Positions 22,391 to 44,463 of a stretch of 44,904 nt of DNA are shown one piece after another. The DNA lies in the NCBI GenBank assembly GCA_903907305.1, contig CAIVNT010000208.1, positions 1-44,904 on the forward strand. Reading direction: 5' to 3'. This DNA is from an uncultured Ignavibacteriota bacterium (GTDB lineage: Bacteria > Bacteroidota > Ignavibacteria > UBA10030 > UBA8401). Numbering within the stretch: position 1 is the first letter of the stretch; each line of letters begins with the position of its first letter. A program made the position numbers and the translations under genes. The notes beneath the pieces were generated by a model that was not told the origin of the DNA, did not search any database, and was given only the letters and a program-made list of their open reading frames with translations.

Positions 22391-22525
22391 GTGTTCCCTA
22401 AAAGTTGTATCGCAAGAAAGTACGTTTGTCACACTGAGCGGAGTCCCCCGTCTTAACAAATTCAACGAACGGGGTGCCGCTCACTATAAAAATAGGGCGG
22501 CAGAAGTGTGACAGATCATAAAGAA

Positions 22526-22569: not shown

Positions 22570-22571
22570 CA

Positions 22572-23000: not shown

Positions 23001-23093
23001 ACAGAGTAATGGATAGTTGATAATGGAGAATTGAAAACGGAAAACGGACAATTATCAATTATCCATTTCAATAGCTTTTACAAAATAATTGAT

Positions 23094-23906
23094 CTACGGT
23101 TTTTCAGCATACACCGTAATACTGAAGATCCCCGCACCGCTCTTGCGGTATTCGAGCGCCTCTTCAAGCGAGATATATTTCACAAGCAGTTCGTTCGGAA
23201 TGTTGATCTCGCGGTCTTTCTGTACAGTGATGTTGATGAAGCCGGCACCTCTGATCGTCTGAAGATATTCTTCCTTCTGCTGTGCGCCCGAAACGCATCC
23301 GGCGTACATTGTAGCGGCGGAACGAATATTGTCCGGCAATTCGCCTTTCAGAACGATATCCGAAATAGAGAAGTGTCCGCCCGATTTCATAATTCGGAAA
23401 GTTTCGGAGAATGCTTTGTGTTTGTTGGGAACGAGATTCATTACGCAGTTACTGACGACGACATCGGCAGTGTTGTCTTCTACCGGCATATTCTCGATAT
23501 CGCCGAGACGGAACTCCACATTCGTGTATCCGAGGAGCTTCACATTTCTGTTCGCTTTTTCGAGCATCGGCACCGTCATGTCGATGCCGATCACATGTCC
23601 GCTCTCGCCGACGATGGAGCGCGCGACGAACGCATCATTGCCGGCGCCGGAGCCGAGGTCCACAACAATATTTCCCGGTTTGATCTGCGCGAATTCCGTG
23701 GGGAGTCCGCAGCCGAGTCCGAGATCAGCAGTTGCAACATAGCCGGGGAGATGAGAATAATCCTCGGACATGACGGTAAAGTCAGAATTTGTTGTGCAGC
23801 ATCCACCGCTGCCGCAGCATGATGTTTCGTTTTCTTCCTTCGATTGGAGAGCGATCTCGCCGTATTTTTCTTTCACAAGGTCTTTCAGTTCCTGATTGGT
23901 AGACAT
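23094..23906 (-). CDS. arsM: Arsenite S-adenosylmethionine methyltransferase
   Basis: Cys-rich N-terminus (SCCGSGGCC), SAM motif VVDLGSGAGND, conserved later Cys residues (SNCVMNL, YAGCVSG), and operon context with arsR/arsC/acr3. Confidence 0.85.
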   Translation of the reverse strand: MSTNQELKDLVKEKYGEIALQSKEENETSCCGSGGCCTTNSDFTVMSEDYSHLPGYVATADLGLGCGLPTEFAQIKPGNIVVDLGSGAGNDAFVARSIVGESGHVIGIDMTVPMLEKANRNVKLLGYTNVEFRLGDIENMPVEDNTADVVVSNCVMNLVPNKHKAFSETFRIMKSGGHFSISDIVLKGELPDNIRSAATMYAGCVSGAQQKEEYLQTIRGAGFINITVQKDREINIPNELLVKYISLEEALEYRKSGAGIFSITVYAEKP

Positions 23907-29791: not shown

Positions 29792-29941
29792 AGTGTGCTC
29801 CCCGAATGTTTATAATGGCTTCGATGAAAGGTAAAGAATATTTTCATAGAAGGGTGATTAAAATTCTGTTAATCTTCTAACGAAATAATGTGTAGATTTG
29901 TTCAGTTCACCGTGTGTGAAAGAAAACCAACCGCCGACCTC

Positions 29942-31162
29942 ATGAATACTCTCGTCCGATATTTGATCTTCATCGTTATAGCCGTTCCTGCTGTATTTGC
30001 GCAAGAGGCACAACAGCCCGATCCGTGCGGTTTTCCCGATACCACTTCCATGGAATTCAAACTCGCCGCACTGGGGAATTGGGGATACGGTTATGACACG
30101 CTGAAATATGACCTGAGCCAATGGAAAATGAGTCCGTTCGCCGTTGTGGATTCCGTCGGTGCGACGGTGCAGAACAGAGCAATGTATGTCATCACCATTC
30201 AGGATACGTCTGCCGATCCGCTGAACAAACGGCAGCGCGTGTGGATGCATGCGCGAACGCATCCGGGAGAAGTGCAGGGTACGTGGGTGGTGAACGAGAT
30301 GATCAAGATGCTGCTTTCGAATACCGAGCTTGCAAAGACTTTGCGTCAGCGATACGTATTTAATATCATGCCGATGTACAATCCGGACGGTGTTGAAATC
30401 GGCAATGCCCGTGAGAATGCGAACATGATCGACATAGAAAGCAATTGGAATAATGTTTCTCCGCAAAAAGAAGTTCTCGTTTTAAGATCGCAGTTCCAGA
30501 AATATACGTCGAAACCGAATCCGATGAAGATCATGCTGAACATCCATTCGGCATATGACTGCACGCGGTACTTCGTTTATCACATGCCGGCAGGAACTAC
30601 GCCGACATTTGCCGCGCTCGAACGGCGGTTCATTGATGATGTAAGAATGAATTTTCCTAACGCCATTAAACCGTACAATTATTTCGTCAGTTGGACGAGT
30701 GTGCCCGCGACCCAATATCCGGAGAGCTGGTGCTGGAGCAATTTCAAAGATAAGATCATGGCATTGACGTATGAGGATGGGAACTGTGCTTCAGCCGAAA
30801 AGTTCGACAGCACGGCCAATGCGATACTGAAAGGGATCGACCTCTTCCTACAGGATACGACGGCAGTGACGTCGGTATCGTTAGCGTCGAATCTTCCGGA
30901 ACGGTATCTTCTCGAACAGAATTATCCAAACCCGTTCAACCCAACCACGACTATTGCGTACGAACTGCCGAACGCCGGAATTGTCTCTCTGAAAGTGTAT
31001 GATGTTCTGGGAAGAGAAGCGGCAATACTTGCGGAAGGCGAACAGTCATCCGGGCGGCACACAGCGCAATTTAACGGCGCTTCATTCAGCAGCGGGATCT
31101 ATTTCTATCAATTACGGTTTGGCGGACGGATCGAAACGAAGAGCATGCAGTTTATTAAATAG
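29942..31162 (+). CDS. M14 zinc carboxypeptidase with T9SS C-terminal sorting domain
   Basis: HARTHPGE (HxxE zinc motif), NPDG, and LNIHS. C-terminal EQNYPNPFNPTTTIAYELP...GIYFYQL tail. Start is set at MNTLVRYLIF (ATG 29942) with a signal peptide. Confidence 0.85.
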   Translation: MNTLVRYLIFIVIAVPAVFAQEAQQPDPCGFPDTTSMEFKLAALGNWGYGYDTLKYDLSQWKMSPFAVVDSVGATVQNRAMYVITIQDTSADPLNKRQRVWMHARTHPGEVQGTWVVNEMIKMLLSNTELAKTLRQRYVFNIMPMYNPDGVEIGNARENANMIDIESNWNNVSPQKEVLVLRSQFQKYTSKPNPMKIMLNIHSAYDCTRYFVYHMPAGTTPTFAALERRFIDDVRMNFPNAIKPYNYFVSWTSVPATQYPESWCWSNFKDKIMALTYEDGNCASAEKFDSTANAILKGIDLFLQDTTAVTSVSLASNLPERYLLEQNYPNPFNPTTTIAYELPNAGIVSLKVYDVLGREAAILAEGEQSSGRHTAQFNGASFSSGIYFYQLRFGGRIETKSMQFIK

Positions 31163-31166
31163 TTCT

Positions 31167-31193
31167 GTAGGACGAAGCGTCGCTTCGTCCTAC
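31167..31193 (+). terminator. Palindrome GTAGGACGAAGCG-T-CGCTTCGTCCTAC followed by GGTTTTATAATTT; probable terminator of the M14 gene and a REP-like unit
   Basis: Read directly from the sequence. 13-bp arms, 5 nt after the stop codon. Confidence 0.65.
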
Positions 31194-31233
31194 GGTTTTA
31201 TAATTTCCGTTTTTAGGAGCAGTACAAAGGCAA

Positions 31234-31258
31234 GGGACGAAGCGTCGCTTCGTCCTAC
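31234..31258. repeat. Second copy of the GGACGAAGCGTCGCTTCGTCCTAC palindrome
   Basis: The 24-nt core is identical to 31170-31193. Lies 21 nt upstream of the dCMP deaminase start. Confidence 0.8.
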
Positions 31259-31278
31259 AATATTACATCGGAGAGTGT

Positions 31279-31719
31279 ATGAGTGACAAACGTGTATCGT
31301 GGCACAAATATTTTATGAACATCGCAGAGCAGGTGGCCACACGCAGCACCTGCAGCCGGAAGAATGTCGGCGCGGTGATCGTCCGCGATAAGACGATCCT
31401 CTCCACCGGATACAACGGCAGTCTCCGCGGCGCTCCTCACTGCGATGATGCGGGACATGATATGGAGAACGATCATTGCGTACGGACGGTGCATGCCGAA
31501 GCGAACGCGGTCGCACAGGCGGCGAAACACGGCGTGCGCATTGACGAAGCGGAGATCTATGTAACGGCATCTCCTTGTTTGACCTGCTTCAAACTGATCG
31601 CCAATTCCGGAATCCGAAAAGTATATTTTATGGAATTCTACCGCGATGAACGGATCACCGAATACGCGCGTCAATGCGGAGTGACATTGGTGTTCATGGG
31701 GGAGAAGAAAACTCTATGA
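31279..31719 (+). CDS. dCMP (deoxycytidylate) deaminase, ComEB-type
   Basis: WHKYFM...A..S.RSTCSR..VGAVIV, HAEANA (zinc His/Glu) and PCLTC (zinc Cys pair). Confidence 0.9.
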   Translation: MSDKRVSWHKYFMNIAEQVATRSTCSRKNVGAVIVRDKTILSTGYNGSLRGAPHCDDAGHDMENDHCVRTVHAEANAVAQAAKHGVRIDEAEIYVTASPCLTCFKLIANSGIRKVYFMEFYRDERITEYARQCGVTLVFMGEKKTL

Positions 31720-31753: not shown

Positions 31754-32473
31754 CTATTCCGCTAATCTTTTTTTCATATCGCCTATGCGGACCTGATCGC
31801 TGGCGAGAGTCTGCGGTAGGAGGAGGGTCTCAGTAAATATTTTTTTCCCTTTTTCTTTCTGACCTGTATCAAAATAGACCAGACCGAGTTCGTAGCGGTG
31901 CCGGATGATATTCGGTGCAAGACGGATCGCGGTCAAGAGCATTTGTTCCGCTTCGGCATATCCACCTCGAGGCAGACTGCCCAGCAGCATACCGGCCAAT
32001 TTTCTTTCGATCCAATTGATGTTTCCGAGTGCGCGGTAGAATGTTCCGTAGATGGAGTACGCAACATCATTGTTCGGATCGAGTTCGATCGCTTTGTCCA
32101 ACGACCGTTTAATGGAATTACAGAGTTCCACCTTCCTCCTGCTCCCCTCCGTGATTGCCTGATATCCCATCGAGACGGCATACCAGCACTGAACATTGGA
32201 ATTCATTGAATCAGCCTTCAATGCTTTCAGGGATAGATCGTATGCAGCATGGTAGTATTGTTGTTGAGATTCTCCGCTGATATCGCCCAGGCAGATATAT
32301 GCACGGACGGAGCGCCAGTATGCTTCGCCGCTGTTCGGATCCTGTTCAATCGATCGGGAGTACGATTGGATCGCTTCGTGGTACCGCTGTTCACGGAACA
32401 ATTGATCACCCGCAGAGATGAGAAGCGGATCTGGAACGGACATCAGGAACATGAGCGGGAAAAGCAAGTTCAT
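31754..32473 (-). CDS. TPR-repeat protein, last gene of the operon
   Basis: TPR-like repeats (YHEAIQSYSRSIEQDPNSGEAYW, ...AIELDPNNDVAYSIYG...). The ATG at 32473 overlaps the upstream stop as ATGA. Confidence 0.65.
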   Translation of the reverse strand: MNLLFPLMFLMSVPDPLLISAGDQLFREQRYHEAIQSYSRSIEQDPNSGEAYWRSVRAYICLGDISGESQQQYYHAAYDLSLKALKADSMNSNVQCWYAVSMGYQAITEGSRRKVELCNSIKRSLDKAIELDPNNDVAYSIYGTFYRALGNINWIERKLAGMLLGSLPRGGYAEAEQMLLTAIRLAPNIIRHRYELGLVYFDTGQKEKGKKIFTETLLLPQTLASDQVRIGDMKKRLAE

Positions 32474-33261
32474 TCCTCCGTCCGTTCCACTCTTTTTTTG
32501 GAGAATGGTCGGAACGCGAACCAATGCTGCGAGAAATATCCTTGCGGGAAGTTCGATGTCGAGAGTCCGTACGCTGCGGGTTTTTCAGGACGGGGAAGAT
32601 ACGCGGTGCCGAACAGCCAGTCCCACACGGCGAACTTTGTGGAGAAATTGATGCTGTTCCCAATCACTTTTGAATGATGCCAGCGGTGCATTTCGGGACC
32701 GTTGATGACGTACTGCAATGCGCCGGAGCGGACATCGATATTCGAATGGATATACATTCCCCACACCGTATCGACGATTCCTTTGATCAGCACCATTTCC
32801 GGAGCGGCGCCGAGAAGGATGATCGGCAGGAACTCGATCGTTTGATTGACCACGATCTCGAGAGAATGGGAACGTGCGCCGGCGAGCCAATCCACATCGC
32901 CGACAGAATGATGCGCTTCGTGGATGCGGTAGAGATATTTGTTGCGGTGCTGCCATCGGTGGAAGAGGTAAATATAGAGGTCGTGCGTGATGAGAAAGAG
33001 CAGGAACTGCAGCCACACAGGCCATGAAGTGATGATCTGAAAGCGGGAGATACCGGTCTGTCCGTCCAGCCAGTGAATGAAACCGAAGATCACCCAGCTG
33101 AGAAGATAACTCTGGAAGATGGTGTACATGCCGAGATCGGTCCAGAATCCTTTCCGGAACAACGGCTGACCGTCGGTGTACGGAATGAGCCGTTCACAGA
33201 CGATCATGATGACCGCGGACGAAACGATGATCACCGGCGAGAGGACTTCGAGACTCATCAT
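32470..33261 (-). CDS. Fatty-acid hydroxylase / sterol desaturase superfamily membrane di-iron enzyme
   Basis: His boxes HDLYIYLFHRWQH, HEAHHS and HRWHH, with 3-4 TM helices. Confidence 0.85.
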   Translation of the reverse strand: MMSLEVLSPVIIVSSAVIMIVCERLIPYTDGQPLFRKGFWTDLGMYTIFQSYLLSWVIFGFIHWLDGQTGISRFQIITSWPVWLQFLLFLITHDLYIYLFHRWQHRNKYLYRIHEAHHSVGDVDWLAGARSHSLEIVVNQTIEFLPIILLGAAPEMVLIKGIVDTVWGMYIHSNIDVRSGALQYVINGPEMHRWHHSKVIGNSINFSTKFAVWDWLFGTAYLPRPEKPAAYGLSTSNFPQGYFSQHWFAFRPFSKKRVERTEE

Positions 33262-34148
33262 GCAGCGATGGACTCCCGTACTCTTCGGAGTTTCTTGCGG
33301 GGACCGAGTTCGCTCTCGTACACTTTTTTTACACCATCGCCGACCGCTTTTTCAATATCGCGGATATTGGAGACAAGACGGATCAATCCGCCGATCTCCA
33401 CAGAAGCCGCCTGATCGCTTCCCCACATCGCACGGTCCAGCGTGATATGCCGTTCCACGAATGTTGCGCCGAGTGCAACGGCCGCCCAGGTCGTGGATAA
33501 TCCTGTTTCATGTCCTGAATAGCCGATGGGACAATCCGGGTATTTTGCTTTCAGTGTATTGATCATCTTCAGATTCAATTCCTCGGGCGGACACGGATAT
33601 GTTGATGTAGCGTGCGCGATCAAAATATTTTCCGTTCCGAGTTCGTTCACGGCATTCTCGATCTCAACCTGATCGGACATTCCGGTGGAAAGTATGAGAG
33701 GTTTCCCGGTGGCTTGTTTCTTTTTCAGCAGAGGAATGTCAGTCAGTGCAGCGGATGCCGCTTTGTAGCAGATGGGGTTGAACTGTTCGATGAAATCAAC
33801 GGATTCTTCGTCCCAGCACGAAGCGAACCAGAGGATCTTCCGGTCCCTGCAGTACCGATCGATCTCCGCATACTGCTCTACACCGAATTCCACCAAGTAC
33901 CGGTATTCCAGATAGGTCATCTTTCCCCAGGGAGTTTCTCGGATGATGTCGCGCTGTTCCTTCGGAACGCACAATTCCGGCGTCCGTTTCTGGAATTTCA
34001 CCGCATCACATCCGGCAAGAGCAGCGCCGTCGATCAGCTTCTTCGCGATCTCCATCGAACCGTTGTGATTGATGCCGATCTCGCCGATGATGAATACACG
34101 TTCACCGTCACCGACAGTACGGTCACCGATTTGAACTTTGTTACTCAT
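33258..34148 (-). CDS. NeuB/SpsE-family PEP-condensing (ulosonic acid) synthase, short form apparently lacking the SAF/AFP-like C-terminal domain
   Basis: FIIGEIGINHNGS, DAVKFQ, ILSTGMS, HATSTYP, IGYSGHE and VERHITLDR are NeuB TIM-barrel motifs. The protein ends at about 296 aa. Confidence 0.85.
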   Translation of the reverse strand: MSNKVQIGDRTVGDGERVFIIGEIGINHNGSMEIAKKLIDGAALAGCDAVKFQKRTPELCVPKEQRDIIRETPWGKMTYLEYRYLVEFGVEQYAEIDRYCRDRKILWFASCWDEESVDFIEQFNPICYKAASAALTDIPLLKKKQATGKPLILSTGMSDQVEIENAVNELGTENILIAHATSTYPCPPEELNLKMINTLKAKYPDCPIGYSGHETGLSTTWAAVALGATFVERHITLDRAMWGSDQAASVEIGGLIRLVSNIRDIEKAVGDGVKKVYESELGPRKKLRRVRESIAA

Positions 34149-34198
34149 ATGAACTCTCCGTTGATTTGATGATGGTTGATATTGATGTCCATGAAAAA

Positions 34199-35020
34199 TT
34201 ACCAGGCGGTCCAGCCGCCGTCCACAACTAGATTTGCTCCGGTCATATAATTTGATGCATCACTCGCGAGAAAGACCAGCGCTCCTTTATAATCCGACGG
34301 TTCAGCCATCCGTCCCAGCGGAGTCCGCTTGGAATAATTCTTCACAAAATATTCTTCCTGTCCTGCGCATACTCCGCCGGGACACAGAGCATTCACACGG
34401 ACTCCTTTGTTTCCCCAATACGCTGCAAGATATTTTGTAAAGGAGATCACCGCACCTTTTGTGGCGGGATATGAAGGCGATTTGAAGAACGGCTGCGTTC
34501 CATCCGGACGAAGATACAATGATTGATCAGGAGCGACGAGTCCGTATGTGGAAGCGACATTGATGATGCTTCCGGTGCCGCGCTCCGCCATGACGGAACC
34601 GAGCACCTGAGAACAGAGGAACATTCCGGTGACATTCACATCGAATGAGCGCTGCCACAGTTCGAGCGGATAGGATTCGAATTTTGATTGCTCGGCGGCG
34701 GATTCCGGTGATTCGAATTTGTCGTTGATGGCAGCGTTGTTCACGATGATATCGATGTAATCGAAGAAACCGAGAACACTCGAACGTAATTGTTCAACGG
34801 AAGAGCGCTGAGTGATATCCGCACCGATGCCGAGTGTTTTTGCTCCGGTGTTCAGGTTCAATTCATGCGCGAATTCAACACAAGCTTCGGCGTTCACATC
34901 CGTTACGACCACGTGTGCACCTGCTTCGGCGAGTGCATAACAATGCTGTCTGCCGATCAGGCCGAGGGCACCGGTGATAATGGCAACTTTTTCATTCAGC
35001 GAAAACATCTCCATCGTCAT
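34199..35020 (-). CDS. Short-chain dehydrogenase/reductase (PtmA-like SDR)
   Basis: TGALGLIG cofactor motif, NNAA, and the S...YxxxK triad (YPATK). Confidence 0.9.
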   Translation of the reverse strand: MTMEMFSLNEKVAIITGALGLIGRQHCYALAEAGAHVVVTDVNAEACVEFAHELNLNTGAKTLGIGADITQRSSVEQLRSSVLGFFDYIDIIVNNAAINDKFESPESAAEQSKFESYPLELWQRSFDVNVTGMFLCSQVLGSVMAERGTGSIINVASTYGLVAPDQSLYLRPDGTQPFFKSPSYPATKGAVISFTKYLAAYWGNKGVRVNALCPGGVCAGQEEYFVKNYSKRTPLGRMAEPSDYKGALVFLASDASNYMTGANLVVDGGWTAW

Positions 35021-36351
35021 ACCGCCTTCTTCGGTTTCATGTTGAAGTTGCTCGTCTTCCGAAAGACCGGTTCCACCGGCTCGCCGCGGAGCATCGAACG
35101 GACATTCTTTCCGTCGACCGCCGACTTCAGCATCGGCAGGATCTCACGGTAGGCCGATAATGTGTATTCGATATCGGCATCGGTATGGGAGAGGCTCATA
35201 TTGTGGAATCCGGTCCACAGGATGCCGCGTTTGATCAGTTCCTGTTGGACGAATGACTTCATTTCGAGAGGATTACCGAATGACGCATCGAATGTGACGA
35301 TGGTTCGACAGCCGAATCCGGAACAGCGTGCGAACGATACACCGTGGTCATCCGCGATCTGATTGAACGCATGCTTCAGTTTGGTCCCCTGTGCAGCGAG
35401 ATATTCAGGGACGCGCCGGTCCAGCAATTCATGGATCGTCGTCTGCGCTGCGGCAAGGGAGAGCGCTTCACCGCCGAATGTGGTAAAGAAAAATACTTCC
35501 TTTTCCAACAACTGCATCACATCGGCTCTGCCGGTAAGGATAGAAAGGGGCATACCGTTCGCCACCGCTTTGGAGAAGCACGCCAGATCGGCTTTCACGC
35601 CGAAATATTCCTGCGCTCCGCCGACGGCCAGCCGGAATCCCGTCCACATCTCGTCGAAGATGAGCAGTGTGCCGTTTTGTGTGCAGACCTCTTTCAGTTT
35701 GTGGAGAAAATTATCTTTCGGTGCTTCGAAGACAATTGGTTCAAGGATGATACATGCCGTATCACTGTCGATGGAATCGATCACTGATTGAATGTCGTTG
35801 TAATTAAAAGTGTATGTCAGATCCTGCGTCTGCTGAGGAATGCCTTTGTTCCGGTCTGTGACGCCGATATACCAGTCATGCCATCCGTGATATCCACAGC
35901 AGAGCACTTTATTCCTTCCGGTGAATGCGCGAGCCAGGCGGACGGCCGCTGTTGTCACATCGCATCCTGTTTTACTGAAGCGGATGCTTTCGGCATTGGG
36001 AACGACCGTGCGGACGAGTTCAGCCACTTCCACTTCCAGCGGATGCATCAAAGAAAATGTGATACCGTCCTCAAGCTGACGTTTGATGGCATCATTTACG
36101 GGTCCATAGGAATATCCCAGCGACAGAGGACCGACACCCATAGTAAAATCAAGGAATTCATTTCCGTCCACATCCCATACATGCGAACCTTTGCCGCGGG
36201 AAAGATATTTCGGTGCGACCCCTTTCACATATTGGCCGGGACCTTTCGCGAGCGTCTGTGTGACTGCGGGAATGAGTCCGAGAGCACGGATGTAGAGTTC
36301 ATCGGACTGTTCTATGACGGGATACTCTTTATTGAATGCGACAATATTCAT
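35017..36351 (-). CDS. Class-III (HemL / glutamate-1-semialdehyde-aminomutase-like) PLP aminotransferase
   Basis: GSHVWDVDGNEFLDF, FDEMWTGFR, and the PLP lysine in FSKAVANGMP. Confidence 0.9.
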   Translation of the reverse strand: MNIVAFNKEYPVIEQSDELYIRALGLIPAVTQTLAKGPGQYVKGVAPKYLSRGKGSHVWDVDGNEFLDFTMGVGPLSLGYSYGPVNDAIKRQLEDGITFSLMHPLEVEVAELVRTVVPNAESIRFSKTGCDVTTAAVRLARAFTGRNKVLCCGYHGWHDWYIGVTDRNKGIPQQTQDLTYTFNYNDIQSVIDSIDSDTACIILEPIVFEAPKDNFLHKLKEVCTQNGTLLIFDEMWTGFRLAVGGAQEYFGVKADLACFSKAVANGMPLSILTGRADVMQLLEKEVFFFTTFGGEALSLAAAQTTIHELLDRRVPEYLAAQGTKLKHAFNQIADDHGVSFARCSGFGCRTIVTFDASFGNPLEMKSFVQQELIKRGILWTGFHNMSLSHTDADIEYTLSAYREILPMLKSAVDGKNVRSMLRGEPVEPVFRKTSNFNMKPKKAV

Positions 36352-36362
36352 AGTACTCCTGA

Positions 36363-37325
36363 TTAGATGATCGGCTCGACTTGAGTTTCAAAAACATGGA
36401 AGTCGATTCCTTGTTCCAATTGATTGAGATGAACGATCACTCTTGCGGCGATCTGTTCACCGGTGAAACCTTCATACGTGAGTACATCGTGCAGGAGCGC
36501 AGGTTTGAACCACTGATGTTCTAGTGCGATGGGGAGAACATACGCCGTAACAGAATGCTTCAGGAATAATTCTCCAATGATGGAGAATAATCCTCCCGAT
36601 ACGAAATGATCTTCAACCGTAACGATCAATGCGCATTCTTTCGCTGCAGACAGGATCACTTTTTCATCGATCGGTTTCACCGTCCGCAGATTGATGAAGC
36701 GGACAGAGAAACCTTTCTTTTCTAGAATCTTCTTTGCGAACCACGTTTCGCGGTTCATGAATCCATACGTGATGAATGCGATATCCATTCCGTCGCCGAG
36801 CACTTCCGCTTTCCCGATTGCGAACGGTTCGTAATGTTTTTCCACCGGCTGCTGAGTGGTGTAGCGGATATACCACGGGGAAGGATCGTCCACGATCGAA
36901 GGAAGTCCTGAAATAAGTTCTTCGTGATCTGCAGGACAGAAGACCTTCATGTTCGGGATACCGCGCATCAGGGAAACATCCTCGATCGCCTGATGGGTCG
37001 GACCGTTTGCTTCGGAGAGGAATCCGGGAACTCCACCGACAATCTTCACCGGAAGGTTTCCTATTCCGACATCCGTGCGGATAAATTCGAATGCTCTCAG
37101 CGTAAGAAAGGTTGCCAGTGCATGCACGATCGGCACTCGACCCCGAAGTGCCAACCCTGCGGCTGCACCGATCATCGTCTGTTCGGTGATACCGACATCG
37201 ATGAAGCGATTCCCTAAAATTTTCGGCAGATTGCGGATGGCAGCGCGGTTTTCGGCTGTCATCACGACCAGACGTTCATCCCGCGCAGCGATCTCCTGCA
37301 GTTTCTCTTCATAGTTCATCTTCAT
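36363..37325 (-). CDS. Transketolase, C-terminal (pyrimidine-binding plus C-terminal domain) subunit
   Basis: FIDVGITEQTMIGAAAGLAL, GPTHQAIEDVSLMR and RTVKPID. Confidence 0.9.
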   Translation of the reverse strand: MKMNYEEKLQEIAARDERLVVMTAENRAAIRNLPKILGNRFIDVGITEQTMIGAAAGLALRGRVPIVHALATFLTLRAFEFIRTDVGIGNLPVKIVGGVPGFLSEANGPTHQAIEDVSLMRGIPNMKVFCPADHEELISGLPSIVDDPSPWYIRYTTQQPVEKHYEPFAIGKAEVLGDGMDIAFITYGFMNRETWFAKKILEKKGFSVRFINLRTVKPIDEKVILSAAKECALIVTVEDHFVSGGLFSIIGELFLKHSVTAYVLPIALEHQWFKPALLHDVLTYEGFTGEQIAARVIVHLNQLEQGIDFHVFETQVEPII

Positions 37326-38179
37326 CTCACCATAAGTGTTTCGGATGTTAGGATGCTTTCCTTCTCTCCGTGCAATTCATCAAGGAGCATTTCTACTTCT
37401 TCCGCCGTGAAGTTGACGAACCAACGGTCCGCCCGCCGCTCGATGCTCGGCAGTCCTTTTCCACGGACAGTATCTGCGATCACCACGCTCGGCTGATCGG
37501 TGCTGAACGGAAGCCGAGAAAAGGTCTGCTCCATCTGATCAAAATCATGTCCGTTGATCCTCTTTACCCAGCAGCCGAAAGCCTTGAATTTTTTGTCGAT
37601 GGATTCCAGAGGAATGAGTTCTTCCGTTCGGATGTTCGCCTGGAATTCATTCCTGTCGACGATGATCACCAGATTGTCCAGCTTGTACGCACTGGCAACA
37701 AGCAGACCTTCCCATATCGTCCCTTCGTTCAGCTCACCGTCACCCACAATCACAAAGACCTTCCCTTCACCCTGTTTCATTTTAATATCGAGCGCGATAC
37801 CGATACCGACGGAAAGCAGATGACCGAGCGAACCGGAGTGGAATTCAACACCGGGCACGGCACGGTTCGGGTGCCAGTAGATGGAATCATTCGTTTTCAA
37901 ATGATTGGCAAGCCGTTCTTTTTCGATGAAACCGAGTTCAGCGAATGTTCCATACAGCGCCGGAACATCGTGTCCTTTGGACAGCAGCAGATAATCCCTT
38001 GACGGATCGTTGAGATTCTCCGGAGAGATATTCAGCGTCTCGGAGTACAGATAGACCAGCAGGTCGGCGCAGGAGAGTGAGGCACCGATGAAGCATCCTC
38101 CGTTGGTCGCCATACCGATGATATGTTCGCGTACGCGGAGCGCCAGCAGTTCAAGTTCGATCGTGCGTTGTTCGTTCAT
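37322..38179 (-). CDS. Transketolase, N-terminal (TPP-binding) subunit
   Basis: LSKGH, SGSLGHLLSVGIG, and the GDGELNEG TPP/Mg motif. Has a 4-nt overlap with the C-terminal subunit gene. Confidence 0.9.
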   Translation of the reverse strand: MNEQRTIELELLALRVREHIIGMATNGGCFIGASLSCADLLVYLYSETLNISPENLNDPSRDYLLLSKGHDVPALYGTFAELGFIEKERLANHLKTNDSIYWHPNRAVPGVEFHSGSLGHLLSVGIGIALDIKMKQGEGKVFVIVGDGELNEGTIWEGLLVASAYKLDNLVIIVDRNEFQANIRTEELIPLESIDKKFKAFGCWVKRINGHDFDQMEQTFSRLPFSTDQPSVVIADTVRGKGLPSIERRADRWFVNFTAEEVEMLLDELHGEKESILTSETLMVR

Positions 38180-38185
38180 AATCCT

Positions 38186-38989
38186 CTAGGTAAGTTGTTT
38201 CGTCTCGGCAGCGGAGACGGTTCGCAGTTCACCGATATGGTGGCGGTACCAATTCACTCCGGCGTACCGCGCATTGATCTCGTGGATCTCCGGTTTCAGT
38301 TTCAATAAGGTCAGGATCTCGTGCATGGAGAAGTTCGGACGAAGTCTGTCCCACAGTTCATCATATACCGTTTTGATGAATTCGTAATCCTCTTGAAAAT
38401 CGATCGTCCACCGGTGCGTCATAGAATAATTCAGATCGAGTTCCCATTCCACATTCCCGAGTTTGAACAGTTCGGGATGCTCCCAGATGTACGGGGTCGT
38501 ATGTTCGCGTTCGTAATTCTTTTTAGCGACACGCCAGGCGGTCTCGAGTGTTTCAAATGTCATCAATTCCACATCGTTGCCGTCGGGATAGGTTGCGGGA
38601 TGCAGGTTGCTGACGAAATCAAATCGGCGCATGGAATTCCTCTGGAACCGAAGTATACAGTCGATCACCGCGGGATCGATCAGGGGACAGTCCGACGGGA
38701 TCTTCACCACAATGTCCGCCTGTTCCAGTTTTGCCGCCTGATAGTGTCTGTCCAGAAGATCGGTCGGATGGCCGCTGAAACATTTCACGCCGAGTTTGCG
38801 GCACAGTTTTCTGATCGGTTCGTCGGACCGGTCCGTGGTCGTGGCAACGATGATCTCTGCGGTACCCGAGATGCACCTTACACGTTCGATCATCCTTTGC
38901 AGCAGCGGGGCGCGGGCAAGCGGCAGCAACACCTTGTTGGGAAGGCGTGTCGATCCGGTCCGTGCCTGTATAATAATGAGTGTCTTCAT
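38186..38989 (-). CDS. SpsF-type cytidylyltransferase (CTP_transf_3 family)
   Basis: IIIQARTGSTRLPNKVLLPL N-terminal nucleotide-binding motif; length about 267 aa, as for SpsF-like proteins. Confidence 0.85.
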   Translation of the reverse strand: MKTLIIIQARTGSTRLPNKVLLPLARAPLLQRMIERVRCISGTAEIIVATTTDRSDEPIRKLCRKLGVKCFSGHPTDLLDRHYQAAKLEQADIVVKIPSDCPLIDPAVIDCILRFQRNSMRRFDFVSNLHPATYPDGNDVELMTFETLETAWRVAKKNYEREHTTPYIWEHPELFKLGNVEWELDLNYSMTHRWTIDFQEDYEFIKTVYDELWDRLRPNFSMHEILTLLKLKPEIHEINARYAGVNWYRHHIGELRTVSAAETKQLT

Positions 38990-40050
38990 GATCTCTGCGG
39001 GAACAAGCGTAAGAATTTCGACGGATAGTTCGTCCGGAAGAATCCTTTGAAAAGCCGGTTCTTCGGCTGTTTGAAGTGAAGGATGTTGGTGTGCGGAAGA
39101 TCGAGCACCTGTCTGCAGACATCGGCAATATTCAGTGCTGCACAGTTGTTTTGGATCGGCGTCAGCCGTTTCAGCATCTCCACCGGGAAATTTGAATACA
39201 CTTCTTTACCGAGAGCGAGACCAACGTAGACCGTTGAAGAGAATTGCGTGATGAGCACATCGCAGTTCGCGATCATTTCTTCAGCACTGCCGGAGGAGAA
39301 GACGAGCGCTTCCGGCGCATATTTATTGATCTCGGCTGTTGCGCGTTTCTCGTTCTCGTTCGGATGCAGTTTGAAGATGAGGATCCGTCCGATCGCTTTT
39401 TCCAACGCATCGAGGATGACCGCTTTCCGATTCTCAAATTTCACCGTCTCACGGGAATCGGAAGTACAGACGAGTACAAAATTCTTGTGTGGAAATGAGT
39501 TGTTCAAATATTTGGCGCAGTTGTCAAAATTCGGTATGCCGGTCACGGTCAATTTATCAGAGGCAACCCCTTTGCGGATGAAGAGATCCTTGTATCCTTC
39601 GCTGGCTACACAGAATTTTATATAGGCATCGCTGAGTCCCATCGCCGACGTGCTCGCGGACCATCGCGGCATCAAATGAAGCTTTACCAGATAATACGCC
39701 CAATTCTCGGGATCGGTCATCCCTTCCTGAACGAGAACGATCTTTTTCTTCCTGATATTCTTCGGAACAACGAGATCCGCACACGTCACCACGAGGTCAT
39801 AATGATGCTTCTCTCCACGGAAATCCGCAGCAAGGTCATGCTCTTCAAGATACTCCAGACAGCGTTCAGTGAACCTTCTGCTCATGATCGTCATTTCCGT
39901 CAACCCGATTCTGCGCATAAACTCCACATGACCGCTCGCATAGTATGGCGTGAAGTAACACTCGAATTCTTCCGAGAGATGTTCCGATATTTGATGCATC
40001 TGGGTCGTTTGATTTCGCGAACCGCAGATGAAAAGAATTTTCTTCTTCAT
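38986..40050 (-). CDS. GT-B-fold transferase, TagF-like (CDP-glycerol glycerophosphotransferase family-like)
   Basis: FVLVCTSDSRE (compare LYAPTwR), IFKLHPNE (the K.HP motif) and CDVLITQFSSTVYVG (compare DvLITDYSS). Called from motif resemblance only. Confidence 0.5.
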   Translation of the reverse strand: MKKKILFICGSRNQTTQMHQISEHLSEEFECYFTPYYASGHVEFMRRIGLTEMTIMSRRFTERCLEYLEEHDLAADFRGEKHHYDLVVTCADLVVPKNIRKKKIVLVQEGMTDPENWAYYLVKLHLMPRWSASTSAMGLSDAYIKFCVASEGYKDLFIRKGVASDKLTVTGIPNFDNCAKYLNNSFPHKNFVLVCTSDSRETVKFENRKAVILDALEKAIGRILIFKLHPNENEKRATAEINKYAPEALVFSSGSAEEMIANCDVLITQFSSTVYVGLALGKEVYSNFPVEMLKRLTPIQNNCAALNIADVCRQVLDLPHTNILHFKQPKNRLFKGFFRTNYPSKFLRLFPQRS

Positions 40051-41147
40051 ATGGATGATGGTAATGATGATCGTTCTGTGATCGACACCGGTTCGACCGG
40101 AAGGGTGGAATGACCGTTCTGGGCGCGAGATTCCTCAAGCGCTCCCTGTGTCGCCGCAAGAATCACTCCGACGATCACCCAAAAAAGTTCTTTCATGCGT
40201 TTGATTACAATAAATGCAGCGATGAATGTCCCGGCAGACACGGCATCAATTCCCTGAAAGGCTGCGGAGTAACCTGCATCCATCACCCCGATTCCTGCCG
40301 GAATAAAGAAGGCAACAGAGCGTAACAATGACACGACCGGCTCAAAGACCATAATGGAACCGAGTGCCACAGGTGCATGTACGGCAAAGAGGATCGTCCA
40401 TGTTTCGAGCATTTCCGTTGTCCAGCCGCAGAAGAAGAATATGCATGCGCTCAATCCTTCCTTCTTCCGGTGTGCGATAGAGTCCTTGATGACCCGGTCT
40501 GTTTCAATCAACAAATTTTTATGAGTGCCGAGGAATTGGACCAGAGCCGGTATTGGAATCCTTTGCAGCATACTGAACAAGAAGGAACCCAATCTTCCCA
40601 TTGACAAAAAATATCCCGTGATGCCAAAGAGAAGAAGCAGCGATACACTCAACACAACACCGACAGCTGTCATCATACCGGTCATGGTGCTGCCGAACAG
40701 GATGATCCCCGCCAGCACAGCAAGACCGATATAGAGTGCTTGTGCGATTCCCATGAACATTTTCCTCAAGAGAAGACTGGAGATGATCTCGGGGGTGCCG
40801 AGTGATGAGTACCGTTTCACCAATATCACTTTCACGGATTCACCGATGACCACGCCCGCGGGAATGAAACGGTAGAATGATTCTCCTGCGATATGGATCA
40901 TCAGTAGGCGGAGGAACGGAATGGTATTGATTGAACTATGAAGGATGATACGCCACGCAAGAGTATCGCACAGTGCGCCGATGAGGTAAAAAGAAAGAAG
41001 CAGGGGAGCGATTGCGCCGACATCGGAGATAAGTCCGGCGGTTTCTGTTAGATTAATATTCCGGAAGACGAACAACAGCAGGAGCGATCCCGTAAGGAGC
41101 GGCGCTGTGCGTAGAATGAATGTCGTTACAGTCGATCGATTGTTCAC
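40047..41147 (-). CDS. UPF0104 / lysyl-phosphatidylglycerol-synthase-TM-like ('flippase-like') integral membrane protein
   Basis: About 8 TM helices; AWRIIL...IAGESFYRFIPAGVVIGESVKV pattern of the family. GTG start. Confidence 0.6.
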   Translation of the reverse strand: MNNRSTVTTFILRTAPLLTGSLLLLFVFRNINLTETAGLISDVGAIAPLLLSFYLIGALCDTLAWRIILHSSINTIPFLRLLMIHIAGESFYRFIPAGVVIGESVKVILVKRYSSLGTPEIISSLLLRKMFMGIAQALYIGLAVLAGIILFGSTMTGMMTAVGVVLSVSLLLLFGITGYFLSMGRLGSFLFSMLQRIPIPALVQFLGTHKNLLIETDRVIKDSIAHRKKEGLSACIFFFCGWTTEMLETWTILFAVHAPVALGSIMVFEPVVSLLRSVAFFIPAGIGVMDAGYSAAFQGIDAVSAGTFIAAFIVIKRMKELFWVIVGVILAATQGALEESRAQNGHSTLPVEPVSITERSSLPSSI

Positions 41148-41265
41148 GGAAACAAATCTACACAGAACGTATTACCTGTGAATGACCGCGGAGTGAATAA
41201 ACCGTAAATGCAGCGTTAAGGTTCTGTGTCGGTACAGTAAAGAAAGTTTTGCCGACGGAACGCCG

Positions 41266-41802
41266 CTATTGATTCTTATACAAACGGAAGATATCCTTAT
41301 CAAGGTGTTGGGCCTCGAGGATCATATCGCATACTTCGCGGACACAGCCTTCGCCCCCCTTGCGTTCGGTGACATAACGTGCGATTCGTTTATTCCATCG
41401 GCTTCCGTCCGCGGGTGTTGCGGAAAATCCGGCGGAGGCCATCACCTCAAGGTCGTTAATGTCATCGCCGATATATGCGATCTCATTCCATTCCAGCGAA
41501 TATTTTATCTTCATCTTTTCCACAATCTTGATCTTATTCCGCACCCCTTGATATAAATTGTGGATTTTCAGTTTCTTTGCACGAAGACGGACGATCTCCG
41601 TCTCTTCGCTGGTGACAATGGCGGTAATCAATCCCGCATACCGCAGCAGGGTCAGACCCATTCCGTCCCGCGTGGAGAATTTCTTTTGTTCTATACCATT
41701 CTCACTGTAATACATGCCGGCATCGGTAAGCACGCCGTCCACATCGGTCACGAGAAGCCGTATCTGTTTCAATCGTTTGCTGAGTGATGGAGTGAGAGCC
41801 AT
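41266..41802 (-). CDS. KdsC/YrbI-family HAD-IIIA sugar-acid-phosphate phosphatase
   Basis: LLVTDVDGVLTD (DxDGV), TSE, and YIGDDINDLEVM...G. The ATG at 41802 is preferred over the 41847 track start. Confidence 0.85.
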   Translation of the reverse strand: MALTPSLSKRLKQIRLLVTDVDGVLTDAGMYYSENGIEQKKFSTRDGMGLTLLRYAGLITAIVTSEETEIVRLRAKKLKIHNLYQGVRNKIKIVEKMKIKYSLEWNEIAYIGDDINDLEVMASAGFSATPADGSRWNKRIARYVTERKGGEGCVREVCDMILEAQHLDKDIFRLYKNQ

Positions 41803-41827
41803 GGATCGTTCCTTTGGGAATGAGCTA

Positions 41828-42736
41828 TTATTGTCGTTTGGCAACATGGTATTTCCGTTGTTGCGGTGCGTTCACGCTGACAGCGGTATGTTCAATCTCT
41901 TTCGTTCCGATATGCAAAAGATTGAATTTGCGTTCGGACAGGTCATTCGGAAACATTGTCCCGCCCGCATTCAGGAAGGAGATCTTCTTCCGGTGATAAT
42001 GATGATGATGGTGTAAATGTCCGTGCAGCACCCGGGCGACGGACGATGCATGGAACAATTTAAATAAACGCTTCTTATTCCACAGTTTCATCGTGCTCGA
42101 CTCGATGGCGTGCCATAGCCGTTCAAGATTTCCCGCCGCCTTCTTGGCTTCCATCTTGTTGAAGTGGTGATGGATCAACACGAGTACCGTTTTCCCTTTC
42201 AGCATCTCCCCCGAGAAGATCTCATCGAGTTTCTTCAGCTGCTGTTTTCCCACATCGCCGTTGGAGCCGAGAGGATTTGTCAGTGAGTTCCATTGTGCAA
42301 CGGAATTAATCCCGACCAAAGCGACATCCTTTACCATCTTTACGAATGGAAAGATTGATCCGTTCGAGACATACTTACATCCTTCAAAGGTCTCGTGGAA
42401 TGCGGTGGTAAATTCTTTCACCTTCGATTCATAATCGGTCTTCCTGCAGAATCCCGGGAATGTCAGCACATCTTCGGCATAATACGGCCCGCCGAAAATA
42501 TCGTGGTTGCCGATGGTGACGGTCAGCTTTGCAGGATCAAGATATCCGCATTCACGCAGGATGGAACGTGCGTGGGCGAATTCTTTCGGCTTTGCCTGAT
42601 TGGTGATGTCGCCGGTGATGACGATGTGATCGACCGCGAGGGTCTTGCAGGTGTTGAGGATCTCATAGAATATCTCGGTCCGTTCCGGAAAATGGTCGGG
42701 ACTGAGATGGAGATCGGAAAGATGGGCAATTCGCAT
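41828..42736 (-). CDS. Calcineurin-like metallophosphoesterase
   Basis: MRIAHLSDLH, ITGDITN, GNHD, and the C-terminal LHGHLHHHHH His cluster. Confidence 0.8.
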   Translation of the reverse strand: MRIAHLSDLHLSPDHFPERTEIFYEILNTCKTLAVDHIVITGDITNQAKPKEFAHARSILRECGYLDPAKLTVTIGNHDIFGGPYYAEDVLTFPGFCRKTDYESKVKEFTTAFHETFEGCKYVSNGSIFPFVKMVKDVALVGINSVAQWNSLTNPLGSNGDVGKQQLKKLDEIFSGEMLKGKTVLVLIHHHFNKMEAKKAAGNLERLWHAIESSTMKLWNKKRLFKLFHASSVARVLHGHLHHHHHYHRKKISFLNAGGTMFPNDLSERKFNLLHIGTKEIEHTAVSVNAPQQRKYHVAKRQ

Positions 42737-42840
42737 TTCGGAGTTCTCTGTCAATGACGGGGATAAGATACATCCTGTTTGTCATGAACAGATTATCCAA
42801 ATATTATTATACGATGAAGTAACCGGATCGCGTAACGGTG

Positions 42841-44412: not shown

Positions 44413-44463
44413 GAGGGAATATACTGAAGTACGCCGTGCAATAAAACAGATTGTCACCGAAGA

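Follow-up and report, generated by a model that had tools for sequence, protein, structure and literature searches.

The window analysed here, a 44,904-nucleotide stretch of DNA (contig CAIVNT010000208.1, assembly GCA_903907305.1) of an uncultured Ignavibacteriota bacterium, carries a compact cluster of minus-strand genes that is, on balance, probably a conserved pathway for a lipid headgroup consisting of an amino-substituted 3-deoxy-2-ulosonic acid, similar to 3-deoxy-D-manno-oct-2-ulosonic acid (Kdo), 3-deoxy-D-glycero-D-galacto-non-2-ulosonic acid (Kdn) or neuraminic acid. The cluster is widespread, highly conserved and unannotated, and it works like the described routes to 8-amino-Kdo (Kdo8N), Kdn and legionaminic acid (Leg), yet its transferase is in no named family.

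Several described systems resemble parts of this cluster. The Kdn-9-phosphate route of Bacteroides thetaiotaomicron consists of a Kdn-9-phosphate synthase and the Kdn-9-phosphate phosphatase BT1713. The window resembles it in pairing a NeuB-family synthase with a C0 phosphatase of the haloacid dehalogenase (HAD) type, but the Kdn route is without the window's oxidation/amination pair, transketolase, flippase-type protein and hydroxylase, and the score of the window's phosphatase is below the equivalog cutoff. In the 3-amino-5-hydroxybenzoic acid (AHBA) branch of rifamycin biosynthesis, the split transketolase Rif15A/B feeds an amino-aldose phosphate to aminoDAHP synthase (DAHP, 3-deoxy-D-arabino-heptulosonate 7-phosphate); as in the window, genes for a phosphoenolpyruvate (PEP)-condensing synthase, an oxidoreductase, an aminotransferase and a phosphatase cluster with those for the split transketolase, and the synthase there yields an amino-ulosonate phosphate. 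The AHBA branch differs in its class II DAHP synthase, its DegT-type aminotransferase, the cyclisation of its product to an aromatic acid and the absence of activation with cytidine monophosphate (CMP), and as an analogy it would bear only on a possible order of reactions in which amination comes first.

The Kdo8N pathway of Shewanella oneidensis (KdsA, KdsC, KdnB, KdnA, KdsB, WaaA) has the same logic as that proposed below, namely PEP condensation, a KdsC-family phosphatase, oxidation, transamination, CMP activation and transfer to lipid, with KdnB and KdnA acting on free Kdo to give 8-amino-Kdo, which is then activated and transferred (PMC4402001). The window draws on other enzyme families: it has a NeuB-type synthase for KdsA, a short-chain dehydrogenase/reductase (SDR) for the iron-dependent alcohol dehydrogenase, a class-III for a DegT-type aminotransferase, an SpsF-type enzyme for KdsB and a new protein of GT-B fold for WaaA (glycosyltransferase family GT30), and has in addition the split transketolase, an LPG_synthase_TM protein and an FA_hydroxylase. 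The combination of iron-dependent alcohol dehydrogenase (KdnB) and DegT transaminase (KdnA) is not in the window; a KdnA-like enzyme together with an iron-dependent alcohol dehydrogenase was seen only in variant loci of Chlorobiaceae. In the legionaminic acid route of Bacillus subtilis spores, SpsE/SpsF-type enzymes make a CMP-nonulosonic acid (PMC7439481); among PDB entries the window's synthase is closest to SpsE, and its cytidylyltransferase is of the SpsF type, but SpsE has a SAF domain and the route has uridine diphosphate (UDP)-sugar steps, and the window has neither.

The bacterial (poly)sialyltransferases of families GT38, GT52 and GT80 and the TagB-domain enzymes of Tannerella forsythia share with the window's transferase a GT-B fold and a cytidylyl-donor context, and its invariant QEG and HP motifs, at a GT38/GT52-like spacing, may correspond to their (D/E)-E-G-like and HP motifs; the window protein differs in having no significant sequence match to them, a QEG motif, a flippase-type partner and a presumed lipid rather than glycan acceptor. 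MprF combines an LPG_synthase_TM domain with a cytosolic headgroup enzyme, and a similar combination is encoded by coupled genes in the window and by single polypeptides in the database proteins P0363, P0365 and P0367. The partner in MprF is an aminoacyl-tRNA-dependent GNAT-type synthase domain, whereas that in the window is the GT-B protein, and flipping would be a function assigned by analogy.

A sequence-only reading of this DNA, made without database searches, had taken the product of the pathway to be undescribed, and no gene-for-gene match to the routes for pseudaminic acid (Pse), Leg, N-acetylneuraminic acid (Neu5Ac), Kdn or Kdo8N was seen. Assignments to the Neu5Ac/Pse/Leg, Kdo8N, Kdn-9-phosphate phosphatase, TagF and NeuC groups were each rejected on a score cutoff or on gene content, and a full-text literature search found no paper on this cluster.

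Gene content of the cluster

Calls of open reading frames (ORFs) give an uninterrupted minus-strand run from 41147 down to 31754. At the sequence level, six junctions are 4-nucleotide ATGA overlaps (LPG_synthase_TM/GT-B, GT-B/cytidylyltransferase, transketolase N/C, aminotransferase/SDR, NeuB/FA_hydroxylase, and FA_hydroxylase/tetratricopeptide repeat (TPR) protein) and the others are gaps of 6, 11 and 50 nucleotides, the last being the SDR/NeuB junction. Nine junctions mean ten genes; the extent, overlaps and gaps of the coupled run are as the sequence-only reading had given them, but its count of eleven genes is one too many, as its own family list of ten entries already implied. All ten of its motif-based family calls agree with Pfam and NCBIfam profiles, with the qualification that "TagF-like GT-B" reaches no Pfam cutoff and takes its fold from an AlphaFold model. 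The ten genes, followed by an upstream phosphatase gene, are:

40047 to 41147, minus strand: LPG_synthase_TM (UPF0104 or MprF-flippase-type) membrane protein (Pfam PF03706)
38986 to 40050, minus strand: GT-B-fold transferase of an unnamed family (AlphaFold AF2 model, orthologue motifs)
38186 to 38989, minus strand: SpsF-type cytidylyltransferase, CTP_transf_3 (Pfam PF02348)
37322 to 38179, minus strand: split transketolase, N-terminal subunit, binding thiamine diphosphate (ThDP) (Transketolase_N, NF004559)
36363 to 37325, minus strand: split transketolase, C-terminal subunit with pyrimidine-binding and C-terminal domains (Transket_pyr, Transketolase_C)
35017 to 36351, minus strand: class-III pyridoxal phosphate aminotransferase resembling glutamate-1-semialdehyde aminomutase (GSAM) (Aminotran_3)
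34199 to 35020, minus strand: classical SDR resembling sugar-acid dehydrogenases (adh_short_C2)
33258 to 34148, minus strand: NeuB-family PEP-condensing ulosonate synthase without SAF domain (Pfam NeuB)
32470 to 33261, minus strand: FA_hydroxylase-family membrane di-iron enzyme (Pfam PF04116)
31754 to 32473, minus strand: TPR protein (RMD1-3-like) with hydrophobic N-terminus (TPR families, PF21033)
41266 to 41847, minus strand: KdsC/YrbI-family C0 HAD phosphatase, a member of the system (TIGR01670)

The HAD gene is on the same strand as the run, 118 nucleotides upstream of the LPG_synthase_TM gene. The sequence-only reading had placed a KdsC-type phosphatase just upstream of the cluster; the family assignment stands, and the gene (41266-41847) is now counted as part of the system.

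Conservation of gene order

An alignment scan with the GT-B protein, limited to one genome per species, gave at least 288 relatives; 80 loci were analysed, with tblastn searches using the window proteins, and presence frequencies were taken from 53 GT-B loci with complete flanks. The canonical order, (LPG_synthase_TM) GT-B, cytidylyltransferase, (transketolase N, transketolase C), aminotransferase, SDR, (HAD), NeuB, FA_hydroxylase, holds in Chlorobia, Ignavibacteria, Kapaibacteria, Acidobacteriota, Thermoanaerobaculia, Nitrospirota, Dissulfurispiraceae and Polyangiaceae. Genes for the cytidylyltransferase (83%), SDR (83%), aminotransferase (81%) and NeuB-like synthase (79%) accompany GT-B in most complete loci, followed by HAD (64%), transketolase (62%) and FA_hydroxylase (57%, directly after NeuB), with lower frequencies for LPG_synthase_TM (26%), a metallophosphoesterase (25%) and the TPR protein (4%). 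Recurrence of the block across genomes had been set as a check on the sequence-only reading, and the fixed order in several phyla bears it out; the same gene order in dozens of species indicates that the run is more than chance.

Protein identities across these groups are 55-80%, with medians of 58-71% for the enzymes relative to the window proteins, which is unusually high for envelope-glycan genes and suggests that the product is fixed and core, not an antigen that varies between strains. GT-B orthologues in other phyla are 54-65% identical, the NeuB-like synthase has 75% identity to its counterparts in Chlorobaculum tepidum and Chloroherpeton thalassium, and the aminotransferase 76-77% to those of Ignavibacterium album and C. 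thalassium. The closest relatives of the window proteins are in Bacteroidota metagenome-assembled genomes (MAGs), Chloroherpetonaceae and Ignavibacteria.

The arrangement varies among lineages. Ignavibacterium has GT-B, cytidylyltransferase, aminotransferase, SDR, HAD, NeuB and FA_hydroxylase genes in one row without transketolase, which is thus dispensable in the cluster, and Chloroherpeton has two sets, LPG_synthase_TM through GT-B, cytidylyltransferase and both transketolase genes to the aminotransferase in one, and SDR, HAD, NeuB and FA_hydroxylase in the other. The HAD gene lies between the SDR and NeuB genes in most related loci and is paired with NeuB in C. tepidum too, as HAD-NeuB at one site.

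Ulosonic acid module

The generic module for CMP-ulosonic acids is complete, with a NeuB-family synthase, a KdsC/YrbI HAD phosphatase and a CTP_transf_3 enzyme that are all above family cutoffs. The synthase matches Pfam NeuB with 253 bits (residues 38-274 of 296 amino acids) and has no SAF domain by Pfam, just as the sequence-only reading had surmised; it falls below the equivalog cutoffs of TIGR03569 (244 against 400 bits) and TIGR03586 (203 against 340 bits), and its best match in the PDB is SpsE (1vli, E 2e-43). Among 50 NeuB-like orthologues, the equivalents of E25, K53, Q55, K129, S132, Y186, S213, H215, E234, H236 and D247 of NmNeuB are conserved, and three sugar-side positions differ (E134 to A or S, N184 to S, and D214 to G); the metal and PEP site is thus intact. 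The window's NeuB-like protein has no exact match in the contig index.

The phosphatase scores 157.8 bits with TIGR01670 (cutoff 107) and has the DVDGVLTD motif; its best model is that of Kdn-9-phosphate phosphatase (NF058599), where 166.8 bits is just under the cutoff of 180. The cytidylyltransferase scores 110.7 bits with PF02348 (cutoff 22.6) and reaches the cutoff of no KdsB or PseF equivalog model (for PseF, 21 against 206 bits), its best PDB match being 6oew, named "Cytidylyltransferase" (E 2e-40). All enzymes of the cluster stay below the equivalog cutoffs of the named NeuB, PseI, KdsB, PseF, HemL and OlsE models. Profile calls on the ten genes and their neighbours also revealed no 4,6-dehydratase, DegT-type aminotransferase, N-acetyltransferase or NeuC/PseG/LegG hydrolase, so that the precursor genes of the Pse, Leg and Neu routes are indeed absent, as had been thought from the motifs.

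Between the two products offered by the sequence-only reading, a sugar acid and an alditol phosphate, the former is favoured by the NeuB-type synthase together with the KdsC-family phosphatase and SpsF-type CTP_transf_3, by natural fusions of the latter two enzymes in Poribacteria, and by the possible sialyltransferase-type motifs of the GT-B protein; the alditol phosphate is disfavoured.

Proposed precursor supply, oxidation and amination

Transketolase is encoded as separate N-terminal (ThDP) and C-terminal (Pyr plus C) subunits with Pfam domains above cutoffs. The former has 91.9 bits for Transketolase_N, 208 bits for NF004559 and a GDG...NEG motif; the latter has 101.6 bits for Transket_pyr and 69.6 bits for Transketolase_C, and among PDB entries it is closest to the C-terminal chain of the Carboxydothermus hydrogenoformans split transketolase (6yaj, E 1e-41). 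At two loci (L019 and L041), an insertion of about 2.1-2.2 kb separates the two transketolase genes, which elsewhere are adjacent or overlapping. The aminotransferase matches Aminotran_3 (157 bits) and NF004856/PRK06209 (384 bits, cutoff 486), with GSAMs as its best PDB matches (E 4e-58). The SDR has TGxxxGxG and YxxxK motifs and matches adh_short (148 bits) and adh_short_C2 (166.9 bits); its best NCBIfam models, all below cutoff, are gluconate 5-dehydrogenase, PRK09186, mannonate oxidoreductase and KduD.

Variant loci bear on the function of the last two enzymes. In Chlorobiaceae, LPG_synthase_TM and GT-B genes (with a 4-nucleotide overlap) are followed by genes for a PseF/KdsB-like CTP_transf_3, an iron-dependent alcohol dehydrogenase and a DegT aminotransferase, a trio for activation, oxidation and transamination that occupies the place held elsewhere by the cytidylyltransferase, transketolase and aminotransferase (the SDR being at another site). 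The best PDB match of the DegT enzyme is the Kdo8N transaminase KdnA (5k8b, E 5e-81; next DegT protein, 2e-44). The KdnA-like enzyme and alcohol dehydrogenase in the place of the aminotransferase and SDR are the best available evidence that the latter two convert a hydroxyl group of an ulosonic acid to an amine, and the product would probably carry an amino group.

In Poribacteria, one polypeptide combines the cytidylyltransferase with the KdsC-type phosphatase (CTP::KdsC), and the cluster comprises a GFO/IDH oxidoreductase, SDR, NeuB, PAP2 phosphatases, a polysaccharide deacetylase and GT-B, without an aminotransferase. At two of these loci (L037 and L055), the deacetylase is of the Polysacc_deac_1 family and the PAP2 phosphatases number one or two, the aminotransferase being missing. 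A free amine might be produced there by de-N-acetylation instead.

A different setting was seen in Desulfobacterota, where the GT-B gene of a Desulfosarcina MAG (L063, 13295-20951) and of a Syntrophobacterales MAG (L065, 3707-11391) lies beside a gene for a 2,552-amino acid polyketide synthase (PKS; NMO/ER-KS-AT-ACP-KR), an HpnA/OleD-like reductase and a 373-amino acid protein, with no sugar-acid genes within 10 kb.

The GT-B protein

The GT-B protein (38986-40050) reaches no Pfam or NCBIfam cutoff (Epimerase_2, 18.4 bits against 30.6; Glyphos_transf PF04464, 17 against 22.1), and members of its family are labelled "hypothetical protein" in every source that names one. Its weak NCBIfam matches are TIGR04396, the BFO_1060 family and the LIC12162 family, all from nonulosonic-acid loci, BFO_1060 being a family of Pse/Leg transferases of T. 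forsythia; Pfam and NCBIfam give no match to GT38, GT52, GT80 or a sialyltransferase. The AlphaFold (AF2) model (pLDDT 86.8) has a GT-B fold, and a Foldseek search with it gave 194 PDB matches at E<=0.001, of which the 50 listed are all GT-B-type enzymes. The top matches include a TagF-like capsule polymerase with CMP (8a0c), UDP-N-acetylglucosamine (UDP-GlcNAc) 2-epimerases and TagF, and Bcs3 is also near the top. Searched against PDB sequences, the family profile has one significant match, the TagF-like capsule polymerase (E 4.5e-4), and finds no epimerase and no sialyltransferase.

Q108-E109-G110 and H229-P230 do not vary among 76 orthologues. D/E-D/E-G and HP motifs are common to families of bacterial sialyltransferases that are otherwise unrelated, and in the NmB polysialyltransferase E153-G154 and H278-P279 function in catalysis and in the binding of CMP-Neu5Ac (PMC2169525); both motifs have also been noted in the TagB-domain Pse/Leg transferases of T. 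forsythia (PMC5420450). The spacing from QEG to HP is 120 amino acids, against 125 in the NmB enzyme, although the motifs are short and the first residue is Q. The motifs, the weak family matches and the CMP-bound Foldseek match fit a transferase of CMP-sugar acids, and the GT-B protein is proposed to be a new glycosyltransferase, a putative CMP-ulosonate:lipid transferase.

The N-terminus of the GT-B protein (MKKKILFICGS-NQTTQMH) is nearly invariant in orthologues, so that the start of a deposited version (P0241, 337 amino acids), 17 residues downstream of the ATG at 40050, is probably wrong (too late).

Membrane partner and probable lipid acceptor

The LPG_synthase_TM protein (366 amino acids, GTG start) matches PF03706 with 68.2 bits (cutoff 33.4). 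It holds the transmembrane domain only, with no C-terminal aminoacyl-phosphatidylglycerol synthase domain, and has no sequence match in the PDB, MprF structures included. It was also considered as HpnL, which was rejected (TIGR03476, 68 bits against a cutoff of 196; no hopanoid genes nearby). Its gene is directly upstream of GT-B in loci of Chlorobia, Acidobacteriota, Thermoanaerobaculia and Polyangiaceae, and the 4-nucleotide overlap of the two genes is kept in lineages as distant as the Chlorobiaceae and that of the window.

A profile search of 1.84 billion representative proteins recovered 813 GT-B relatives, among which are natural fusions of an N-terminal LPG_synthase_TM domain (56-76 bits, cutoff 33.4) to GT-B. 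Three of these, P0363 (690 amino acids), P0365 (713) and P0367 (709), belong to three different clusters at 50% identity, and P0366 is a truncated fourth case. The P0363 cluster has full-length members from three samples, and the linkers differ between fusion proteins, which argues against a single assembly artefact. Apparent fusions of 620-730 amino acids in the high-GC loci L072, L078 and L083 were rejected, BLAST searches indicating that they are artefacts of upstream read-through. Some other GT-B relatives have N-terminal transmembrane anchors. P0371 (551 amino acids) has, after GT-B, a C-terminal desaturase-like domain with HRYFSH and HRRHH boxes and a Pfam score just below the cutoff; a separate FA_desaturase gene was seen in Thermochlorobacter (L013), two genes downstream of the GT-B and cytidylyltransferase genes.

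This MprF-like fusion architecture suggests that the acceptor is most probably a membrane lipid. The co-conserved FA_hydroxylase and lipid-type neighbours point the same way. The FA_hydroxylase matches PF04116 with 100 bits (cutoff 31) and has intact His boxes (HRWQH, HEAHH, HRWHH); OlsE was rejected as its identity (NF052566, 111 bits against a cutoff of 475). The other neighbours are lineage-specific: OlsF-like in Ignavibacteria, acyl-CoA-ligase-like in Chlorobia, and PAP2 and PKS genes. The OlsF near-equivalog of Ignavibacteria (591 bits, cutoff 620) follows the FA_hydroxylase gene, as at 14506-16017 of locus L004, its family (family 26) being present in 8 loci.

Proposed pathway

The sequence-only reading had suggested that an (amino)sugar acid not described before is activated with a cytidylyl group and added to a lipid or to a polymer of the envelope, an idea that gains support from synteny, the Chlorobiaceae variant and the fusion proteins. 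In the pathway that we propose, the SAF-less NeuB-type synthase would condense PEP with an aldose phosphate, which the split transketolase, where present, could supply from the pentose-phosphate pool; as transketolase is dispensable in the cluster, precursor supply is probably its only part. The KdsC-type phosphatase would remove the phosphate of the condensation product, the SDR would oxidise one hydroxyl group and the class-III aminotransferase would turn the carbonyl into an amine, following the logic of KdnB and KdnA. The SpsF-type cytidylyltransferase would then make the CMP-sugar acid, and the GT-B protein would transfer the sugar acid to a membrane lipid at the cytoplasmic face. The LPG_synthase_TM partner would translocate or present this lipid, like the transmembrane domain of MprF, and the FA_hydroxylase would modify it, possibly creating or decorating the acceptor. 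Whereas the protein families, the synteny, the oxidation/amination swap in Chlorobiaceae and the fusion proteins are observed, it is inferred in what order the steps occur, how many carbons the sugar has and where its amine sits, what transketolase does and which lipid is the acceptor; candidate acceptors are ceramide, diacylglycerol, an aminolipid and lipid A.

Several observations weigh against this proposal. What the NeuB-like synthase takes as substrate, where oxidation and amination take place and which acceptor is used are putative readings of the gene content, and the role given to transketolase is a guess. An alternative order, in which a sugar phosphate is aminated before condensation, may be considered on the analogy of the AHBA branch. 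The iron-dependent alcohol dehydrogenase of Chlorobiaceae was rejected as KdnB, which it matches only at E 4e-17 and rank 23 (5k8c), and the replacement of aminotransferase and SDR was read at GT-B loci rather than in whole genomes. The best Pfam match of the GT-B protein is Epimerase_2, albeit below the cutoff, its Foldseek TM-scores are higher for UDP-GlcNAc 2-epimerases (0.56-0.58) than for TagF-like matches, and its "D/E-D/E-G" motif starts with Q. The LPG_synthase_TM gene is detectable beside GT-B in only about a quarter of the complete loci. The FA_hydroxylase needs oxygen and many of the hosts are anaerobes; in view of the OlsF neighbour in Ignavibacteria, the hydroxylase may serve aminolipids or ornithine lipids instead, or an aminolipid may be the acceptor.

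A narrower version of the proposed pathway, which we regard as doubtful, would have these bacteria make "ganglioside-like" lipids, with a free-amine sugar of the neuraminic acid type on ceramide or another lipid, by a route without N-acetylated intermediates in which a Kdn-type synthase and phosphatase are followed by oxidation and transamination, and export by an MprF-like flippase. The aminoglycosphingolipid of Chlorobium is said to contain neuraminic acid. Ceramide carrying a C9 ulosonic acid with a free amine would be a good fit to the pathway and might link it to this lipid, for which PMC11762602 cites Jensen et al. 1991.

Alternative interpretations

The same CMP-amino-ulosonic acid pathway may serve lipopolysaccharide (LPS), with lipid A or the inner core as acceptor, a Kdo8N-like residue as product and GT-B as an extra ulosonate transferase distinct from WaaA, which we consider unlikely. 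Consistent with such a role are the KdnA-like transaminase in Chlorobiaceae, Kdo8N being a sugar of the LPS inner core (PMC4402001), the three GT9 heptosyltransferase genes just upstream in Ignavibacterium and the GT9 gene beside GT-B in a Poribacteria locus, the PAP2 phosphatases (the lipid A phosphatase family) beside GT-B in Poribacteria, and the invariance of the cluster within lineages, as in core rather than O-antigen genes. However, MsbA is the flippase of LPS, for which one of the MprF type is not known, so that the fusion proteins fit bulk membrane lipids better; moreover, GT9 genes are adjacent in only 10 of 85 loci, and the window has no lpx, kds or waaA genes.

It is quite improbable that the product is a sugar of the nonulosonic acid type destined for a surface glycan (capsule, O-antigen, S-layer or protein O-glycan), as in the Pse, Leg and Neu5Ac clusters of pathogens. 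In favour of this view, the NeuB, KdsC-type and SpsF-type enzymes make up the generic module for ulosonic acids, the weak matches of GT-B come from nonulosonic-acid glycan loci, the protein-glycan Pse/Leg transferase of T. forsythia included (PMC5420450), and a Legionella O-antigen locus has a class-III aminotransferase beside a PseG-like gene and a cytidylyltransferase. Nevertheless, no Wzx/Wzy, ABC exporter, initiating transferase or further glycosyltransferase is found in or near the cluster, its content and sequence are constant across phyla (55-80% identity), unlike those of strain-variable glycan loci, and the GT-B protein is fused or coupled to a membrane domain of lipid-flippase type.

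No more probable than a surface glycan is an interpretation in which GT-B is a NeuC/PseG-like nucleotide-sugar hydrolase or a 2-epimerase that supplies the aldose, the true transferase being encoded elsewhere; it is retained as a minority view in light of the short motifs and the Q at their first position. Besides the subthreshold Epimerase_2 score, many homologues have a precomputed PF02350 match, UDP-GlcNAc 2-epimerases have the highest Foldseek TM-scores, and an H-P-N motif occurs in that family too. Conversely, the family profile finds a TagF-like polymerase and not an epimerase among PDB sequences, the KdsC-type phosphatase implies a route through a phosphorylated aldose for which NeuC is not needed, and fusion or coupling to a flippase domain, transmembrane anchors and a PKS neighbourhood would be odd for a soluble precursor enzyme.

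Finally, a CDP (cytidine diphosphate)-activated alditol or amino-alditol phosphate, polymerised or attached by a phosphodiester in the manner of teichoic acid by a TagF-like enzyme, is very improbable, for although the GT-B profile has its sole significant PDB sequence match in a TagF-like capsule polymerase, Foldseek places TagF and Bcs3 near the top, and transketolase, SDR and aminotransferase could in principle make an amino-alditol phosphate, the activating enzyme is a CTP_transf_3 (KdsB/NeuA/SpsF type) and not a CDP-alcohol synthase of the TagD/TarI/IspD type, the core NeuB-family synthase and KdsC-family phosphatase would have no role, and Glyphos_transf is below its Pfam cutoff.

If the proposed lipid pathway is correct, a zwitterionic sugar-acid lipid would be conserved in a large group of bacteria of ecological importance, among them green sulfur bacteria, Ignavibacteria, Kapaibacteria, Acidobacteriota, Nitrospirota and sponge-associated Poribacteria. 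The GT-B protein would represent a new glycosyltransferase family using CMP-sugar acids, MprF-type flippase domains would have a second type of cargo (a glycolipid rather than an aminoacyl-phospholipid), and the oxidation and transamination steps would be a non-orthologous version of Kdo8N-type chemistry. There would also be a testable genetic explanation for the amino-sugar-acid sphingolipid of Chlorobium, as well as candidate biomarker lipids for anoxic environments. If the ganglioside-like version is true, the genes for the orphan aminoglycosphingolipid of Chlorobium would be at hand, and this lipid class would reach Ignavibacteria, Kapaibacteria, Acidobacteriota, Nitrospirota, Poribacteria and Myxococcota.

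Transcription, accessory genes and remainder of the window

From the overlaps alone, the ten genes may be taken to form one transcription unit. Counts in a scan for sigma-70 promoters and terminators were no higher than in shuffled background, so that the scan is uninformative on the limits of the operon. Just upstream of the GTG start at 41147, in the gap between the HAD and LPG_synthase_TM genes, the sequence TAGATTTG (41152-41159, minus strand) fits the Bacteroidetes-type -7 promoter element, TAnnTTTG; an internal promoter or another start codon is possible in this 118-nucleotide gap. Downstream of the cluster, a strong 14-bp GC-rich hairpin with a T run after it (31165-31195, plus strand) lies 3' of an M14 peptidase gene, and its reverse-strand counterpart (31235-31255, minus strand) is at the 3' end of a 139-amino acid ORF (31255-31674); the pair (31165-31255) looks like a bidirectional terminator closing the region downstream of the cluster.

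The TPR protein matches TPR families and PF21033 (54 bits). Its gene overlaps that of the FA_hydroxylase by 4 nucleotides, as would suit the operon member described in the sequence-only reading, but it is present in only 2 of the 53 complete loci (L021 and L022) and is not core. Two further genes lie upstream of the HAD gene:

41828 to 42754, minus strand: calcineurin-like metallophosphoesterase, an accessory neighbour (Metallophos)
42841 to 44457, minus strand: Ppx/GppA exopolyphosphatase, probably not a member (Ppx-GppA)

The 3' end of the metallophosphoesterase gene (Metallophos, 48 bits) overlaps the start of the HAD gene by 20 nucleotides. Its homologues beside the cluster are mostly in Ignavibacteria; they are transcribed away from GT-B or lie downstream of the FA_hydroxylase gene. 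The enzyme could be a PlcP-type phospholipase C supplying diacylglycerol. The Ppx/GppA protein (Ppx-GppA, 246 bits) was dropped as a member because its gene is next to the cluster in the closest relative (L006) only and is not otherwise conserved there.

The remainder of the window consists of unrelated housekeeping genes. A GH5 cellulase (13282-15252, minus strand) and the M14 carboxypeptidase (29888-31162, plus strand) both end in a Por_Secre_tail domain, which suggests type IX secretion and fits Bacteroidota. An arsenic-resistance-like trio (21341-23906, minus strand) encodes an ACR3-type SBF transporter, an ArsC-like low-molecular-weight phosphatase and an ArsM-like S-adenosylmethionine-dependent methyltransferase. 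Between 20001 and 21000, the GC content dips to 0.40, compared with about 0.49 elsewhere, and a 180-amino acid ORF without a Pfam match (20117-20659) lies beside an Amidase_2 gene; this region could be foreign DNA.

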